From contig JAUSIS010000006.1 of assembly GCA_030647355.1 (NCBI GenBank), positions 169,506 to 233,505 of the forward strand: a stretch of 64,000 nucleotides of DNA, given 5' to 3'. This document shows, one piece after another, positions 17,639-41,753 of this stretch. The DNA is from a bacterium (GTDB lineage Bacteria; Patescibacteriota; UBA1384; VFKW01). The notes under the pieces were generated by a model. The model was given only the letters and a program-made list of their open reading frames with translations, did no database searches and had not been told where the DNA came from. Each line of letters starts with the position of its first letter. Position 1 is the first letter of the stretch. The position numbers were made by a program, and so were the translations under genes.

Positions 17639-17852
17639 ACCTTGCAAAATCACGCAAATTAAAGCATATTATATTAAGAACCTGTACAAAATCTATTCTA
17701 GGAGCGAATCAGAGGATATTTTAGCCGAAAAATGCAAATCTTGAAGAAGGGATAGCCATAGCTATCTTAATGAGTGATTTACATTTTGCAGGCAAAATAA
17801 GCATGGTGCAGCTGCCAGATATAGATCTTGGACAGGTTCTAAGGGAGGACAA

Positions 17853-18290
17853 ATGATTTTCCTAGGGGCAGATCATGCCGGCTTTGAATTAAAGGAAGAA
17901 ATTCGCAAATGGCTTCAGGAAAGAGGCGATTCTGTTATGGATATGGGCACCGATTCTAAGGAGAATGTGGATTTTACCGAATATGCCAAAAGCGTTGCCA
18001 AGGCAACGATTGAACAAAACGGAAAAGGGATTCTATTTTGCTCAAGTGGGCAAGGTATGGCGATAGCTGCAAACAAAGTAGACGGAATTCGGGCGGCTGT
18101 AGCTTGGATACCGGAGATAGCCGAAGAATCAAAAGCGCATAGCGACACCAATGTTCTATGTTTACCGGCAAATTTTCTGAAAGCAGATCAGGTAAAAGAA
18201 ATAATAGATAAATGGCTTTCAACTCCTTTCGCCAGCGAACCTCGCTACATCCGCCGCATAAAAAGAATGAAGGAATTTGAAACTAATTAA
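17853..18290 (+). CDS. rpiB: ribose-5-phosphate isomerase B
   Basis: MIFLGADHAGFELKEEI...CSSGQGMAIAANK is the typical RpiB/LacAB signature. Confidence 0.8.
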   Translation: MIFLGADHAGFELKEEIRKWLQERGDSVMDMGTDSKENVDFTEYAKSVAKATIEQNGKGILFCSSGQGMAIAANKVDGIRAAVAWIPEIAEESKAHSDTNVLCLPANFLKADQVKEIIDKWLSTPFASEPRYIRRIKRMKEFETN

Positions 18291-33516: not shown

Positions 33517-36369
33517 CTACTTTAGAAACTTCTTTAGATACTGCCCGGTATAAGAGGAAACATTTTCTTTTATATCCTCCGGCGTTCCTTGCGCCACAAT
33601 CTTGCCGCCTTTTTCTCCGCCTTCCGGCCCGAGATCGATTATCCAATCCAATGTCTTTATAACATCCATATTATGCTCAATTAATAGAACTGTATTACCT
33701 AAATTTACCAGACGATTCAAAACTTCCAGCAACTTCTCAACATCGGCAAAGTGCAAACCGGTCGTCGGTTCGTCTAATATATAAAATGTCCGTCCCGTAC
33801 TCCTTTTTGACAATTCCGCCGCTAATTTAATCCTCTGCGCTTCGCCACCCGACAAAGTCGTCGCCGATTGCCCTAATTTAATATATCCCAAACCAACATC
33901 CGCCAGAGTCTGCAATTTATCCTTTATTTGAGGAATGTCAGAGAAAAACTCTGTAGCTTCCTTAACAGTCATATCTAAAACCTGAGCAATATTTTTGCTT
34001 TGCCATCGTACCTCTAATGTTTCACGATTATATCTCTGCCCATGGCAAACCTCACAAGAGATATAAATATCGGGCAGAAAATGCATTTCGATTTTAATAA
34101 GTCCATCGCCACGGCAATTTGCGCACCGTCCACCTTCGACATTAAAACTGAATCTTCCTGGCATATATCCGCGCGATTTTGCCTCGATAGTCCGTGCAAA
34201 CAAATCCCTAATATGATCAAATGTCTTGGTATATGTGGCTGAATTGGAGCGAGGAGTTCGGCCGATGGGGGATTGGTCAATGATAATAACTTTATCAATA
34301 TGTTCCAGCCCTGAAATTGACAAATACCTGCCTGGCTTCTCGTACGCCCCATGCAATTTATTCATCAACGCTTTATACAATATCTCATCAACCAGAGTAG
34401 ATTTTCCCGAACCCGAAACACCAGTAATCCCAACAAACTTACCAAGCGGAATTTTGACCTTAATGTTTTTTAAATTATTTTCCCGAGCGCCCTCCACAAT
34501 TAAAAACTTCTTATTACCGACTCTCCGTTTTTTTGGTATCTCAATTTTTTTCTTTCCTGACAAATATTGACCAGTAATAGATTCGCTCTCGGCAATTATA
34601 TTCTCCAAGTTGCCGGTCGCCACAATCTTTCCGCCTAATTCACCAGCGCCTGGCCCGATATCGACTATGAAATCTGCTTGTCGAATTGTCTCCTCATCGT
34701 GCTCAACTACTATTACACTATTGCCCAAGTCTCGAAGTGACTTGAGTGTGTCCACAAGCCGTTGATTGTCTCTCTGATGTAACCCGATTGTCGGTTCGTC
34801 CAACACATATAGCACACCAACTAATGAGGACCCGATCTGTGATGCTAAACGAATTCTCTGCGCTTCTCCGCCCGACAATGTCATCGCTGCTCTATCCAAT
34901 GTCAAATAATCTAAACCGACTCTCACCAAAAAATCAATTCTATTTTGAACTTCTTTCAAGATTCGTTCGGCAATTAATGTATCTCTCCGGCTAATTTTCA
35001 GTTCCTTAAAAAATGTCGCTATCTGTTCTGTTGCAAGCGATGAAAGCTCGGCGATATTCTTTCCGCCAACCCTTACCAACAGGCTTTCCGGCTTTAATCT
35101 AGTGCCGTGACATTCCAAACACGTTTTTGAAATCATATAATGTTCAATTTCGTCACGTATCGCATCAGATTCTGTCTCAAGATAACGCTTCTCTAGGTAG
35201 GGTATAATGCCAATAAAATTTGTCTCAAAGGTTCTAGCTCGACCAAGTGCCCAATAGCGCACAGTAATTCTCTGTGGAGTTTCCACTCCATACATTAGTA
35301 ACTGTTTTTCTCGCTCACTAAGTAATTTAATCTGTATATTTACATTAATTCCTAGAAATTTTGATGCAGACAGGATGATCGCTCCATAATAATTACCTTC
35401 CGAAAACAACGCTGGCAACACTCCACCTTCGGCAATTGTTAATTTTTCATTTGGCATGACTAAAGTCGGATCAACTTCTTTTTTAAATCCTAACCCATGA
35501 CAAGCCGAACACGCTCCGTAAGGGCTATTGAAAGAGAATGTTCTCGGTGCAATATCGCCAAAACTGATGTTGCAATTAGGACATGATAATTGCTCGGATA
35601 GCATAATTTCACTTTGGTCGTCCAAAGCTTTGCGCGAAGGAGACTCGTCTTTATCCTCGATTTTTATTATCACTAACCCGCGTGCTAATTTTAATGCCGA
35701 TTCTAGAGCTTCGCTTAATCGGCTTCGCAAGCTTTGTCCGATTATCAATCTATCAACAACAACCTCAATCGAGTGTGCCTTGTAACGCTCTAACTCTATC
35801 TTGTCATTTAAATTCTTAACCTCGCCATTTACCCTAACCCTCGAAAAACCTCCACGGTATAAATCATATAAAAGCTGATGATATTCACCTTTTCTTCCGC
35901 GAACGACGGGAGCCAAAATCATTATTCTAGTATTCTCACCCAAATCATTTATAAGCTCAATCATCTGATCAACCGTCTGTCTGGAAATAACCTTGTTGCA
36001 TTTTGGACAATGAGGTTTGCCGATTCTGGCATACAAAAGTCGTAAATAATCATAAATTTCAGTAACAGTGCCAACTGTAGAGCGTGGATTGTGACTAGTC
36101 GCTTTTTGATCAATAGAAATAGCAGGGGACAAACCTTCGATATAGTCAACATCTGGTTTGTTCATCTGCCCTAAAAATTGCCTAGCATAACTAGACAAGC
36201 TCTCAACATATCGTCTTTGTCCTTCGGCAAAAATCGTATCAAAAGCCAGCGAAGACTTTCCTGAGCCGGAAATTCCCGTAAATACTACCAATTTATTGCG
36301 CGGAATTTCTAGATCAATATTCTTTAAATTATGTTCCCGCGCTCCTTTAATAACAATTTTTTCTTCCAT
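33517..36369 (-). CDS. uvrA: excinuclease ABC subunit A
   Basis: Two ABC ATPase modules ([10 protein letters not shown] / [10 protein letters not shown]; LSGGEAQR twice), zinc-finger cysteines. Length 950 aa. Confidence 0.9.
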
Positions 36370-36580
36370 CTCTCTTTTTTCTCCTGAGGATGTAAGTTCA
36401 ATCTGTCATATTCAGATGCGTTGTACCATTGAAGCCAGTCAAGCGAAGTGCAGTGCTCCTGACCCAACTGGATCAGGAAACAAAACGCTGGCTGAAATGA
36501 TATAACGCATCATTAACTCTAAACTCACATCAACCCTATTATACCCGAACGAGAACCGAAAATCCAGCACCTAGTTGGGG

Positions 36581-38997: not shown

Positions 38998-41013
38998 TTA
39001 TCGCTCCGACTTAATTATATCCCGTTGAATTTTCCGAAGCTCAATGAGTTCATCGCGCAGTGCTGCCGCCCACTCAAACTGCAACTCGCGAGCCGCTTCT
39101 TTCATCTCTTTCTCTTTGCGCTTGATTAAATCGTCAATATTGCCGCCGCGTGCCATCTCTTTTTCAACCGCATCCAAACCAGTTTCTTCCCCTTCGATTC
39201 TAGCGACAATTGAATTAATTTCTTTTTTAATACTTGCAGGAGTAATACCATGAATTTTATTATGCTCGAGCTGTATCTCTCGACGTCGGTTTGTCTCGCT
39301 AATTGCTTTTTTAAGCGAGTCTGTCATTACATCGGCATATAAAATAACTTTACCCTGCACATTCCTCGCCGCCCGCCCTATTGTCTGAATAAGCGATCTC
39401 TCTGATCGCAAAAACCCTTCTTTATCGGCATCCATTATTGCAACCAACGATACTTCAGGCAAATCTAAACCCTCTCGGAGTAGGTTAACCCCGACAATAA
39501 CATCGTAAGTCCCTTGCCTCAAATCTCGTAAAATCTCAATTCGCTCTAAAGTATCAACATCGCTATGCAAATAGCGTACTTTAACTCCATTTTGATTCAA
39601 ATATTCACTTAAATCTTCGGCCATTTTCTTTGTTAAGGTAGTCACTAGCACTCTTCCGTGTTTAGCGATTCGTTTTTCGATTTCTCCAACCAAATCCTCA
39701 ACCTGGTTTTCAATCGGCTTAACCTCCAATTCTGGGTCAATTAAGCCTGTTGGACGGATAATCTGCTCGACAATCTGCTGGCTATTTTGCAGTTCATATA
39801 CTGCCGGCGTAGCAGAAGTAAAGATAACGCGATTCATATATTTACTAAACTCGCCCCATCTTAATGGCCGATTATCACGGGCGGAAGGCAATCTGAACCC
39901 ATAATCAACCAAAGTGTTCTTTCTCGACTTATCGCCTTCGTACATCGCTCCGATTTGTGGTACAGTTACATGCGACTCGTCAATAATCATTAAAAAATCC
40001 CTGCCTCGAGCGGAGTCGAGAGGATCCATAGCAAAATAATCGAGCAAAGTATTAGGCGCCGATCCGGCTGGTCTTCCCTCTAAATGTCTCGAATAATTTT
40101 CGATCCCGTTGCAATAACCAACTTCTCGCATCATTACCAGATCGTATTTTGTACGTCTAAATAACCGCTCAGCTTCGGGTATTTTCCCCGTCGAGCGCAA
40201 ATGTCCCACTTGCTCATTCATCTCTTTCTCAATCTCCCTGAAAGCAACCTCTGCTTTTTCCGGATCCATAACATAGTGCCGTGCTGGAAAAATCGTTAAA
40301 TATTTTACCTGTTCACGTTCTCTGCCGGTTGTAAAATCGCGGACGCAAATTCGGTCAATTTCGTCCCCGGAAAATTCAATTCTGAAAATAATTTCCTGAT
40401 TTACAGGCACTAATTCAACTATATCACCTTTCGCCCGAAAATTTCCCCTCGCCAGCGAAACTTCATTTCGAATATATTGCATCTCGACTAATCGTTTGAT
40501 TAAATTTTCTCTTCCCAGCTTTTCGCCTTTATTTATCATCAAAACAACATTTTTATACGCTTCGGGCGAACCTACTCCATAAATACACGAAACAGAAGCA
40601 ACGATAATCACATCTTTCCTAGTTAAAAGTGCTTGCGTCGAAGCATGTCGTAATCGGTCAATTTCGTCATTAATCTGTGCTTCTTTTTCTATATACGTAT
40701 CCGTTGTCGGTAAATATGCTTCCGGTTGATAGTAGTCATAATAAGAAACGAAATACTCAACTGCATTTTCCGGAAAAAAGTCTCGAAATTCCTGACAAAG
40801 CTGTGCCGCTAATGTTTTGTTATGAGCAATAACCAAAGTCGGCTTTTGTATGCGATCAATCACATTAGCAATCGTGAATGTCTTACCGGAACCTGTCACG
40901 CCCAAAAGAGTCTGCATTCTAAACTCTTTCTGCAGACCTTCGGTTAATTTATCAATTGCCTTTGGCTGATCACCCGCCGGCTTAAATTTACTTTTGATCT
41001 TAAACTTTTCCAT
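38998..41013 (-). CDS. uvrB: excinuclease ABC subunit B
   Basis: Helicase motifs ([16 protein letters not shown]), beta-hairpin and C-terminal UVR domain. Length 671 aa. Confidence 0.9.
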
Positions 41014-41020
41014 TTTTCAC

Positions 41021-41112
41021 TCTTTTTTAGTTGGAGAATAATGCGATGAGGCGAGTTAAACGTAGTGCATCCGCCTCCGCCGGTTGGCGGAGGAACGCTC
41101 ACCGAATTGCGT
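41021..41112. other. nested inverted-repeat element immediately upstream of uvrB (11-bp outer stem, perfect 8-bp GC inner hairpin)
   Basis: Outer ttggagaataa / ttattctccaa. Inner cctccgcc-ggtt-ggcggagg at 41064-41083. Confidence 0.4.
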
Positions 41113-41549
41113 TATTCTCCAACTAGCTTATTATAGACGAACAAATACCGAAAATCCAGCTGTTGAGCCAAGCTCATGCTTGACGAGTTTTATTTTTCTG
41201 GAAGCGAAAGATATTCCTACGCTTCAAAAGAAGTCGTGCAGGGGTATGGGATTGTAAGGGACATAGGGGGCGACTTCTGCTCGTCATTTACATAGATCGG
41301 CGGAGCCGAATCTGCTTACATCAGCCCGCCCTGATTCGCCGACAGAGTCGGCGACGGATAACAACGAGCCCCCTTAACCCTTACATACAAAACCTGTGGA
41401 TAACCCGATTTCAGGTGTATAGAATTTAGGAATTTTACAGGAAGTGAACCTGTTAATCGGTTGGAACCTAACCAACCTATTGACAAGGTTAGACATATCT
41501 TTAACAATACAAATAGAAAGAAAAAAGGTTTGGAAAGGAGGTGATTAAA

Positions 41550-41753
41550 ATGGCATACAGTGTAACATCCAAAAAAAGCGGACGCGCTTATAATCTGCAC
41601 ATGAAAGAAGTTACTCTGCGCGGAGGACGCAAACAGGTTATCTACTTCTTCGCACAAGATGTAAGAGAAGGTGCATTGGACAAACTTCCTGAAGGATATG
41701 AAGTTATGGAAAATGAAAGAACTGGTCTTCCAATGTTGAGGAAAGCTAGATAA
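41550..41753 (+). CDS. small basic conserved-looking protein (67 aa), hypothetical
   Basis: Strong GGAGGTG RBS 7 nt before the ATG (MAYSVTSKKSGRAYNLHMKEVTLRGGRKQVIYFF...). Followed by a clean terminator. Confidence 0.55.
   Translation: MAYSVTSKKSGRAYNLHMKEVTLRGGRKQVIYFFAQDVREGALDKLPEGYEVMENERTGLPMLRKAR

Follow-up and report, generated by a model that had tools for sequence, protein, structure and literature searches.

Upstream of uvrB, in a 64,000-nucleotide stretch of contig JAUSIS010000006.1 from a member of the Patescibacteriota (the window), lies a long, GC-rich and strongly folding intergenic region, and the question that it raises is whether such a region houses a structured RNA gene. 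The uvrB gene (38998-41013, minus strand) encodes a protein with ~63-65% identity to its named relatives, which belong to Berkelbacteria, Saccharimonadales and 'Patescibacteria group'. From uvrB to the small gene beyond it, the gap measures 527 nucleotides (nt) up to a GTG at 41541 and 536 nt up to the likely ATG at 41550, close to the 540 nt given in a preliminary description of this DNA, and it ranks first in the window for both intergenic length and GC content. The stretch 41021-41400 is indeed GC-rich (0.487, compared with 0.42, or 42%, for the window), as that description had also stated. Its central proposal was that this stretch forms a single element of ~380 nt that is a structured noncoding RNA, regulates uvrB at the DNA level or serves as a site of recombination. 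The reading favored here, with a probability of about 0.55, is that the interval is a composite, consisting of a LexA-controlled uvrB promoter and two lineage-specific, hairpin-rich inserts, termed (a) and (b).

The division follows from comparison with relatives. For an alignment to the window, uvrB loci were taken from L001, L003, L004, L005 and L006, relatives whose UvrB proteins are 69-82% identical. In L003, L004 and L006, the gene order glycosyltransferase, sugar transferase, small gene, uvrB is kept, and the gap is ~190-250 nt. L005 has an additional 379-aa gene between the small gene and uvrB, and L001, the closest relative (82% UvrB identity), has a different gene upstream of uvrB. 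Three blocks are conserved in the gap alignment, namely the promoter of the small gene, a 15-mer (GGTTATCCACAGGTT) and the uvrB-proximal block GCTGGATTTTCGGTATTTGTTCGTCTATAAT. In the alignment with syntenic relatives, sequence specific to the window flanks GCTGGATTTTCGGTATTTGTTCGTCTATAAT on both sides: insert (a), ~41160-41389, sits between the 15-mer and this block, and insert (b), 41028-41125, between the TATAAT and the uvrB start codon. Because a promoter that is conserved in relatives splits two independent inserts, the interval is not one element. The comparison of homologous regions that had been suggested as a check fails at the orthologous site, where five relatives have neither insert, but homologues are found elsewhere: in the uvrA leader for (b), and downstream of uvrA in two species for (a).

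That all of 41021-41400 is one structured noncoding RNA or a site-specific recombination (att) site can hardly be maintained. The 527-nt gap does fold well overall, with z about -6 to -7 (-6.9 on the plus strand and -6.2 on the minus strand, relative to shuffles), and when folding was scored across the 64 kb in 240-nt windows with correction for GC, the region came among the best ~30 of 3,200 (~1%) but not first. However, the interval is split by the conserved promoter and operator, the homologues of its two halves differ, no gene for an integrase or recombinase lies close by, and a blastn search of phage and plasmid collections in distant mode with 41014-41420 returned no match. If the composite reading is correct, a long, GC-rich, well-folding gap in an AT-rich genome of the candidate phyla radiation (CPR) need not equal one RNA gene.

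Between the two inserts lies the uvrB promoter with its LexA operator (41130-41158, minus strand). The -35 box is TGGATT (41158-41153), the -10 box is TATAAT (41135-41130), and the LexA box, a direct repeat TTCGGTATTTGTTCG (41152-41138) with the architecture TTCGG-N6-TTCGG, occupies the whole 17-nt spacer between them. The module GCTGGATTTTCGGTnnTnGTTCGnnTATAAT occurs at two sites in the window, upstream of uvrB and upstream of uvrA, compared with 0.05 expected. The uvrA gene (33517-36369, minus strand) has an identical LexA-box promoter, with the box at 36560-36546 and the -10 at 36543-36538. This promoter is conserved upstream of uvrB in L001, L004 and L005 and upstream of uvrA in L096, L098/L055 and L003. 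Judged from its sequence, uvrB is very probably driven by a LexA-controlled SOS promoter of the Patescibacteria type, in which LexA bound at the spacer operator would occlude RNA polymerase until DNA damage triggers LexA cleavage. A DNA-level regulator of uvrB is therefore part of the interval, as had been proposed, but it takes the form of a LexA-box promoter in the middle, which had been overlooked.

A scan of 185,579 GTDB species genomes with the pattern TTTCGG-N5-GTTCG-N2-TATAAT gave 86 loci. At ~35 of the 86, nearly all in Patescibacteria, the box is ~33 nt upstream of an open reading frame (ORF) that starts M..TKKQKQVFDFI..GISPTIEEIRKKL; the remaining loci include sites upstream of recA-like, recQ-like and uvrA genes in metagenome-assembled genomes (MAGs) of the CPR. 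One lexA-like ORF that is preceded by the box has LexA_DNA_bind and Peptidase_S24 domains, and the presence of the same box upstream of lexA implies that LexA is autoregulated. A direct-repeat LexA motif for Patescibacteria was reportedly described by Sanchez-Osuna, Barbe and Erill in 2017; that the sites reported here match its logo rests on our own genome scan. With Patescibacteria LexA operators they share the direct repeat, the location within the -35/-10 spacer of uvrA and uvrB and the box before lexA, and there is no difference in kind. The promoter and operator are a member of this known SOS system, and insert (b) is in no described family. Direct-repeat LexA motifs evolved in several phyla according to a study that includes the Patescibacteria work among those it cites (PMC7739468). 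If the composite reading holds, the Patescibacteria LexA box can be read from uvrA, uvrB and lexA promoters, which would help to annotate SOS regulons in uncultured lineages.

Two observations concern the same regulator in other genomes. In many Patescibacteria MAGs, LexA is a fusion protein of ~525 aa (L012:2898-4475 and ~35 similar ORFs in loci L011-L082), in which a complete C-5 cytosine DNA methylase domain (E 1e-93) comes after the LexA_DNA_bind and Peptidase_S24 domains. Also, a single genome, Falkowbacteria RIFOXYD12_FULL_34_57 (loci L014, L048, L063 and L087), has four exact LexA-box promoters, which precede a recQ-like helicase gene, lexA and two other genes and which represent a predicted, ready-made SOS regulon for that MAG. 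The lexA leader in this genome is 211 nt in length and includes several small hairpins.

Insert (b) (41028-41125, minus strand), an extended hairpin of 98 nt, is located at the predicted 5' end of the uvrB leader. Its 28-nt arms (41028-41055 and 41098-41125) are 82% complementary, and their outer 14 base pairs (bp) are perfect. A nested hairpin abutting uvrB had been predicted, and it exists, but it reaches 41125 rather than 41112. The interior comprises a 6-bp stem (GGUGAG/CUCGCC), an asymmetric internal loop of 4 nt and 18 nt and a perfect apical 8-bp stem (CCUCCGCC/GGCGGAGG, 41074-81/41086-93) with a tetraloop; the loop stretch reads UGCACUACG. Relative to shuffles, the hairpin stretch 41014-41135 has a folding z of -7.4.

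The uvrA leader contains a paralogue of this hairpin (36415-36511, minus strand) just downstream of the identical LexA-box promoter, and the leader folds with z = -5.1. The two hairpins are numbers one and two among the long inverted repeats of the 64 kb, with arms of 28 nt in uvrB versus 24 nt in uvrA, 82-83% complementarity, and 42 versus 49 nt between the arms. A covariance model, R1, was built from the uvrB hairpin sequence alone, and its sole non-self match in the window is the uvrA hairpin, on the mRNA strand (31.6 bits, E ~1e-5). In the R1 alignment, the unpaired segments CAwUUC, AGCGUU, UGCACUwCGyUUrACU and UCA are common to both hairpins. By our own count, pairing is kept at 14/14 positions of the 6-bp and 8-bp inner stems, one pair having changed on one side and five on both (G-C to A-U, G-C to C-G, C-G to G-C, C-G to A-U, and G-C to U-G). 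Identity between the hairpins, also by our own count, is ~78% at unpaired and ~61% at paired positions, and their outer stems show no sequence relationship. G-U pairs within the inner stems of (b) are compatible with the mRNA strand only. Because the unpaired loops are conserved and the stems co-vary between uvrB and uvrA, the fold appears to be under selection on the mRNA strand, and insert (b) is probably a transcribed leader structure maintained by selection. The earlier proposal of a structured noncoding RNA holds to this extent: (b) is best read as an RNA structure whose pairing is kept in the uvrA paralogue, but it is a leader and not a free-standing RNA.

The location of the hairpins is also shared. 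In the uvrB and uvrA leaders, and in the uvrA leader of L096, the stem starts 5-7 nt past the -10 box, where transcription is predicted to start, and the ribosome-binding site is outside the stem in all three. L096 is the closest relative by UvrA (85% identity); in its uvrA leader, a hairpin of ~150 nt (z = -5.5) comes after the same promoter. The outer stem of that hairpin is orthologous to the outer stem of the window's uvrA hairpin, with two pairs changed on both sides, and the interior has diverged. The uvrB leaders of L001, L003, L004 and L005 lack insert (b), and L006 also has no (b), nor does it have the LexA box. R1 found no match, even at E<=10, in 651 kb of other loci (mostly CPR LexA-box loci) and 20 kb more.

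Perhaps (b) and its uvrA paralogue are instead selfish palindromes that reside in 5' untranslated regions (UTRs) and have no selected function, as would be expected of miniature inverted-repeat transposable elements (MITEs) or of Correia- or enterobacterial repetitive intergenic consensus (ERIC)-type repeats. Insert (b) is bounded by a perfect terminal inverted repeat of 14 bp with TA on either side (TA-GTTGGAGAATAA...TTATTCTCCAAC-TA), it is missing from L001 despite the 82% UvrB identity, and the uvrA and uvrB leaders of the clade are highly variable in length and repeats. However, no terminal repeat is common to both copies, the conserved interior loops and co-varying inner stems noted above are unaccounted for, and both copies occupy the same position relative to the same promoter, beginning at the predicted +1. 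Moreover, neither the 64 kb nor the 670 kb from other loci contain more copies. A conserved interior combined with unrelated outer stems is the opposite of the MITE pattern, in which the termini are kept, and selfish palindromes are an improbable explanation.

As a selected leader structure, (b) would place a very stable stem-loop at the beginning of the uvrB mRNA, at the predicted transcription start, and with its uvrA paralogue would act post-transcriptionally on both nucleotide-excision-repair (NER) mRNAs. A role in mRNA stability or processing is offered tentatively. Protection of the 5' end against 5'-end-dependent RNases would be the favored form of this role; alternatively, an RNA-binding protein or RNase III might dock at, or process, the conserved asymmetric loop. 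Stem-loops that stabilize mRNAs from the 5' terminus are known from the E. coli ompA leader and from the B. subtilis aprE and ermC leaders. Insert (b) is similar to these in that its stem starts at the predicted +1 or no more than ~2 nt away, the ribosome-binding site is free, and a short A-rich linker leads to the start codon. In contrast to them, the uvrB and uvrA hairpins, whose role is a prediction, are longer (98-140 nt), contain a conserved asymmetric loop and are common to two genes of one regulon. The conservation of this internal loop suggests a specific partner, and current understanding is unchanged unless the leader motif has one. If the reading is correct, a selected 5'-terminal leader structure in two repair genes of the same regulon would hint at post-transcriptional tuning of repair in reduced genomes.

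Insert (a) is a G/C-rich structured segment of ~230 nt (41160-41389) with an approximate boundary on the promoter side and a 'TTATG/GTATGTAAGGG' end at 41389. Its core (41253-41385) is closed by two helices whose pairs have high probability on both strands: TGTAAGGG/CCCTTACA (41253-60/41378-85, 0.98-0.99) and AGGGGGC/GCCCCCT (41265-71/41368-74, 0.94-0.97). Among the hairpins inside the core is TCGCCGAC/GTCGGCGA (41336-43/41347-54), which had been described as a 7-bp hairpin; it is present but has 8 bp. The inverted-repeat arms TGTAAGGG-N4/5-GGGGGC bound this 133-nt core and not the whole ~230-nt insert. The segment 41155-41392 folds with z = -3.6 on the plus strand and -3.9 on the minus strand, and because every helix of (a) is perfectly Watson-Crick, both strands fold equally well and the helices carry no strand information.

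Insert (a) is missing at the orthologous position in L003, L004, L005 and L006. A sensitive blastn search of the relatives' loci matched its first 25 nt on the minus strand to L096:3350-3374 at 23/25 positions, and a weaker match in a third species is found at L097:6921-6949. The start reads TATGTAAGGGTTAAGGGGGCTCGTT in the window (minus strand, from 41387), TATGTAAGGGGCAAGGGGGCTCGTT in L096, where it is ~100 nt past the uvrA stop and oriented as uvrA, and TTATGCAGGGGGTGAGGGACTCATT in L097, which is more diverged and lies 37 nt past the uvrA stop, co-oriented with uvrA. All three copies are preceded by ...AGGTT / ...GTTGTT, and the homologous TTATG start falls at the same point as the insertion boundary deduced for the window. 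The L096 and L097 Logan contigs, which come from different samples, stop 29-30 nt past this TTATG. At k=31, this is how contigs stop where a repeat begins, or an inverted repeat whose length exceeds k. The Logan contigs of the window's own run (SRR13727527; L007 and L008) break inside (a), at 41213 and 41243. Between these two contigs, 29 nt of the insert beside the G-run are unassembled, and the remainder is identical to the window. A mis-assembly or chimera at 41213/41243 is unlikely, as both flanks are syntenic neighbors in relatives.

The chance that (a) represents a repeat or mobile element, and not an RNA gene, is close to even. It would most likely be a non-autonomous element without a dedicated role in uvrB control, and it appears to belong to a small family of intergenic inserts that change place between close relatives. 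Palindromic intergenic repeats and MITEs that are co-transcribed within mRNAs are known as Correia elements in Neisseria, as ERIC in enterobacteria, and as repetitive extragenic palindromes (REP) and bacterial interspersed mosaic elements (BIME). Both inserts are comparable to these: they are lineage-specific, 100-230 nt in length and equipped with inverted-repeat arms, they occur in UTRs or intergenic regions, they are absent in relatives, and they are associated with assembly breaks. They differ in that there is one copy of (a) per 64 kb and no target-site duplication or transposase was seen; in addition, (b) has a conserved interior and not conserved termini, and all known copies of (a) flank uvr genes. 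If the reading is correct, (a) would be one of few candidate small repeat or mobile elements in such genomes. In the literature, no paper was found on MITEs or structured uvr leader RNAs in Patescibacteria.

Alternatively, (a) might be an independent small noncoding RNA, or an RNA derived from a 3' or 5' UTR, with a functional link to NER. Such an RNA would be a minus-strand transcript, co-directional with the uvr gene, forming a closed domain (41253-41385) with three apical hairpins. All three copies adjoin a co-oriented uvr gene, being upstream of uvrB in the window and 35-100 nt downstream of uvrA in L096 and L097, and the single copy among ~55 intergenic regions of the window is the one at uvrB. 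The fold is compact and has several helices (pair probabilities 0.94-0.99, z about -3.9), two G-U pairs can lengthen the third helix on the minus strand only, and comparison of the window with L096 shows identical helix strands while the internal loop differs. However, no promoter or terminator framing (a) was recognized, no Rfam family matches it, and in L096 two or three terminator-like hairpins precede the (a)-like element. Downstream of uvrA, the element is missing in L098, in L006 and in the window itself. The relatives' copies are cut at 30 nt, too short for covariation, and the link with uvr is inflated because relatives were inspected around uvr genes only. Taken together, an RNA gene at this position is doubtful and less probable than a repeat.

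Further searches with (a) gave little. When nhmmer, blastn and a covariance model (R2) were run on all relatives' loci, the truncated L096 copy was the only one recovered, and a degenerate pattern of the start of (a) found nothing in IMG/VR. A 79-codon stop-free frame crosses the insert; degenerate DNA scans with it in GTDB genomes, JGI metagenomes and IMG/VR gave pattern matches, none of them confirmed, and a HMMER search of the frame against 1.84 billion proteins returned two repetitive false positives only. The stronger proposition that the uvrB and uvrA leader hairpins are an undescribed cis-regulatory RNA motif, whose loop (..AGCGUU.. / ..UGCACUnCGnUUnACU..) docks a protein or RNase and which thereby supplements the SOS control of NER in this Patescibacteria lineage at a post-transcriptional level, and that insert (a) is in addition a uvr-linked small RNA, is unlikely.

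Several points weigh against the composite reading as a whole. The transcription start of uvrB is a prediction from the -10 box. The family of (b) consists of two members and a diverged orthologue of the uvrA hairpin, all from a single small clade, and a pattern for the conserved loop (TGCACTWCGYTTRACTSGCYTCA) has no match in JGI metagenomes. Templated repair can keep the arms of a palindrome complementary without selection on RNA. The 5' arm of (b) includes a LexA-like box with one mismatch (41106-41092) and resembles the LexA operator (71% over 17 nt), so part of what is taken to be a conserved loop could be a DNA-level feature or the relic of a duplication. As for (a), one full-length copy is available, the 64-kb window contains no second copy, and no exact direct repeat that might be a target-site duplication flanks either the core or the whole insert. 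The contig breaks in the window, L096 and L097 can also be explained by trouble in sequencing G-rich DNA. Finally, a random mobile element would not be expected to adjoin uvr genes, in the same orientation, in all three of its copies, so (a) may be functionally linked to these genes.

Two features of L096 touch on these inserts. Following its uvrA stop are three small, REP-like hairpins (L096:3258-3345; GGGCGCTGACGCGCC, GGGCACTGACGTGCCC and GGCGTTGATAACGCC), each followed by AGGTT(T)(T)AT, and the last of them abuts the (a)-like element. In addition, at L096:274-437 uvrA has its first 13 codons in duplicate, on either side of an insert of ~87 nt that contains a GAAC-TAC-GTTC palindrome. The 13-mer GCTTCCAGAAAAA of that insert recurs in insert (a) of the window, at 41193-41205.

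The preliminary description also centered on a G-quadruplex (G4) motif locked inside an 8-bp stem. The canonical motif, GGGG-TAT-GGG-ATTGTAA-GGG-ACATA-GGGGG, is present on the plus strand (41241-41270) and conforms to G3+ N1-7 G3+ N1-7 G3+ N1-7 G3+. It is the only canonical one in the 64 kb on either strand, and 0.275 are expected, with P(>=1) = 0.24 under a first-order Markov model. The stem, AGAAGTCG/CGACTTCT, can be drawn (41229-36/41271-78, enclosing a 34-nt loop, a shift of +1 from the positions first given), but its probability is ~0 on both strands. The same is true of a proposed long-range pairing of TGACGAG with CTCGTCA (41181-87/41280-86): both sequences exist, the first being 15 nt from where it had been placed, but the pairing probability is ~0 on both strands. 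The claim that a G4 is locked in the stem finds no support, in that the stem is unpopulated in the ensemble, two of the G-tracts pair with C-tracts, and the count is near chance. More precisely, the last two of the four G-tracts are one inverted-repeat arm (TGTAAGGG...GGGGGC), which pairs with C-tracts ~100 nt off. The mirror arm on the other strand, and the arms in L096 and L097, have two G-tracts each. The motif is a by-product of a G-rich repeat arm. Because of the chance-level count and the competing duplex, there is no reason to regard the G4 as a functional core.

A G4 or cruciform that modulates uvrB transcription at the DNA level, from a position upstream of the promoter, is very improbable for similar reasons. 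The canonical plus-strand motif, the only one in the window, precedes the -35 box by ~85-110 nt, and cruciforms could be extruded from many perfect inverted repeats. However, the motif count fits chance (P ~0.24 per window), two of the G-tracts belong to an inverted-repeat arm whose mirror arm has two G-tracts only, and relatives control the same promoter without the motif. Also, the element in L096 and L097 is downstream of a gene and not upstream of a known promoter.

Known RNAs and protein remnants do not account for the gap. The preliminary description had suggested an Rfam scan; with Rfam 15, whose families include RNase P, transfer-messenger, signal recognition particle and 6S RNAs, riboswitches, ribozymes and HEARO/IS605-type RNAs, nothing was found in 41014-41540 at gathering thresholds or at E<=1, and at E<=10 (431 nt) there were only four or five scraps of small nucleolar or small RNA families, with 9-16 bits. 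ARAGORN found no tRNA or transfer-messenger RNA in the gap. The statement that no protein-like ORF covers the interval stands: Pfam has no family for the 148-aa minus-strand ORF, no coding potential was found in the gap, and when proteins encoded beside uvrB in relatives were compared by tblastn, no remnant of a decayed gene was detected there.

At the far end of the gap is a small gene (ATG 41550-41753, plus strand) with a good ribosome-binding site, encoding a 67-aa protein that starts MAYSVTSKKSGRAYNLHMKEVTLRGGRKQVIYFF... and for which Pfam has no family. Its promoter, TTGACA-17-AACAAT (41480-41508, plus strand), is one of the blocks conserved in the alignment with relatives. Because the small gene has its own promoter at 41480-41508, insert (a) is not its leader. 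The next gene after it encodes a sugar transferase (Bac_transf). The 67-aa protein is conserved, is 80% identical to its L006 homologue, and in relatives its gene always adjoins the Bac_transf sugar transferase gene.

The 15-mer GGTTATCCACAGGTT (41392-41406, minus strand) contains a perfect DnaA-box sequence, is conserved in L003-L006 and flanks insert (a). It is native to the locus and outside the insert, and may serve as an operator, either for the 67-aa gene or for uvrB. The E. coli uvrB promoter region reportedly has a DnaA box near promoter P3, according to literature of the 1980s. Similarly, a perfect TTATCCACA is located upstream of uvrB here and is conserved in relatives, but it is ~240 nt from the uvrB promoter owing to (a), and it may belong to the divergent small gene. 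An origin of replication (oriC) was considered and rejected, since there is one perfect DnaA box here, and the 17 boxes with <=1 mismatch in the window (16.8 expected) form no cluster. Another conserved element, TT(A/T)ACAGGTT, is ~55 nt from the 15-mer.

Another long, gapped hairpin of ~165 nt (17677-17845) is found in the window within the 351-nt gap upstream of the gene at 17853 (gap z = -3.5), and it is unrelated in sequence to the uvr leaders. The uvrA and uvrB leaders of the clade differ strongly in length and repeat content. In the uvrA leader of L097 (L097:3790-4000), AGATGGTGrACACGCAATGACA occurs twice in tandem after the LexA promoter, and in that of L098 (L098:3950-4000), ATAAGCTnGTAAG is repeated several times in tandem, likewise after the LexA promoter. 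Leaders of SOS genes in the clade of L097 and L098 change quickly.

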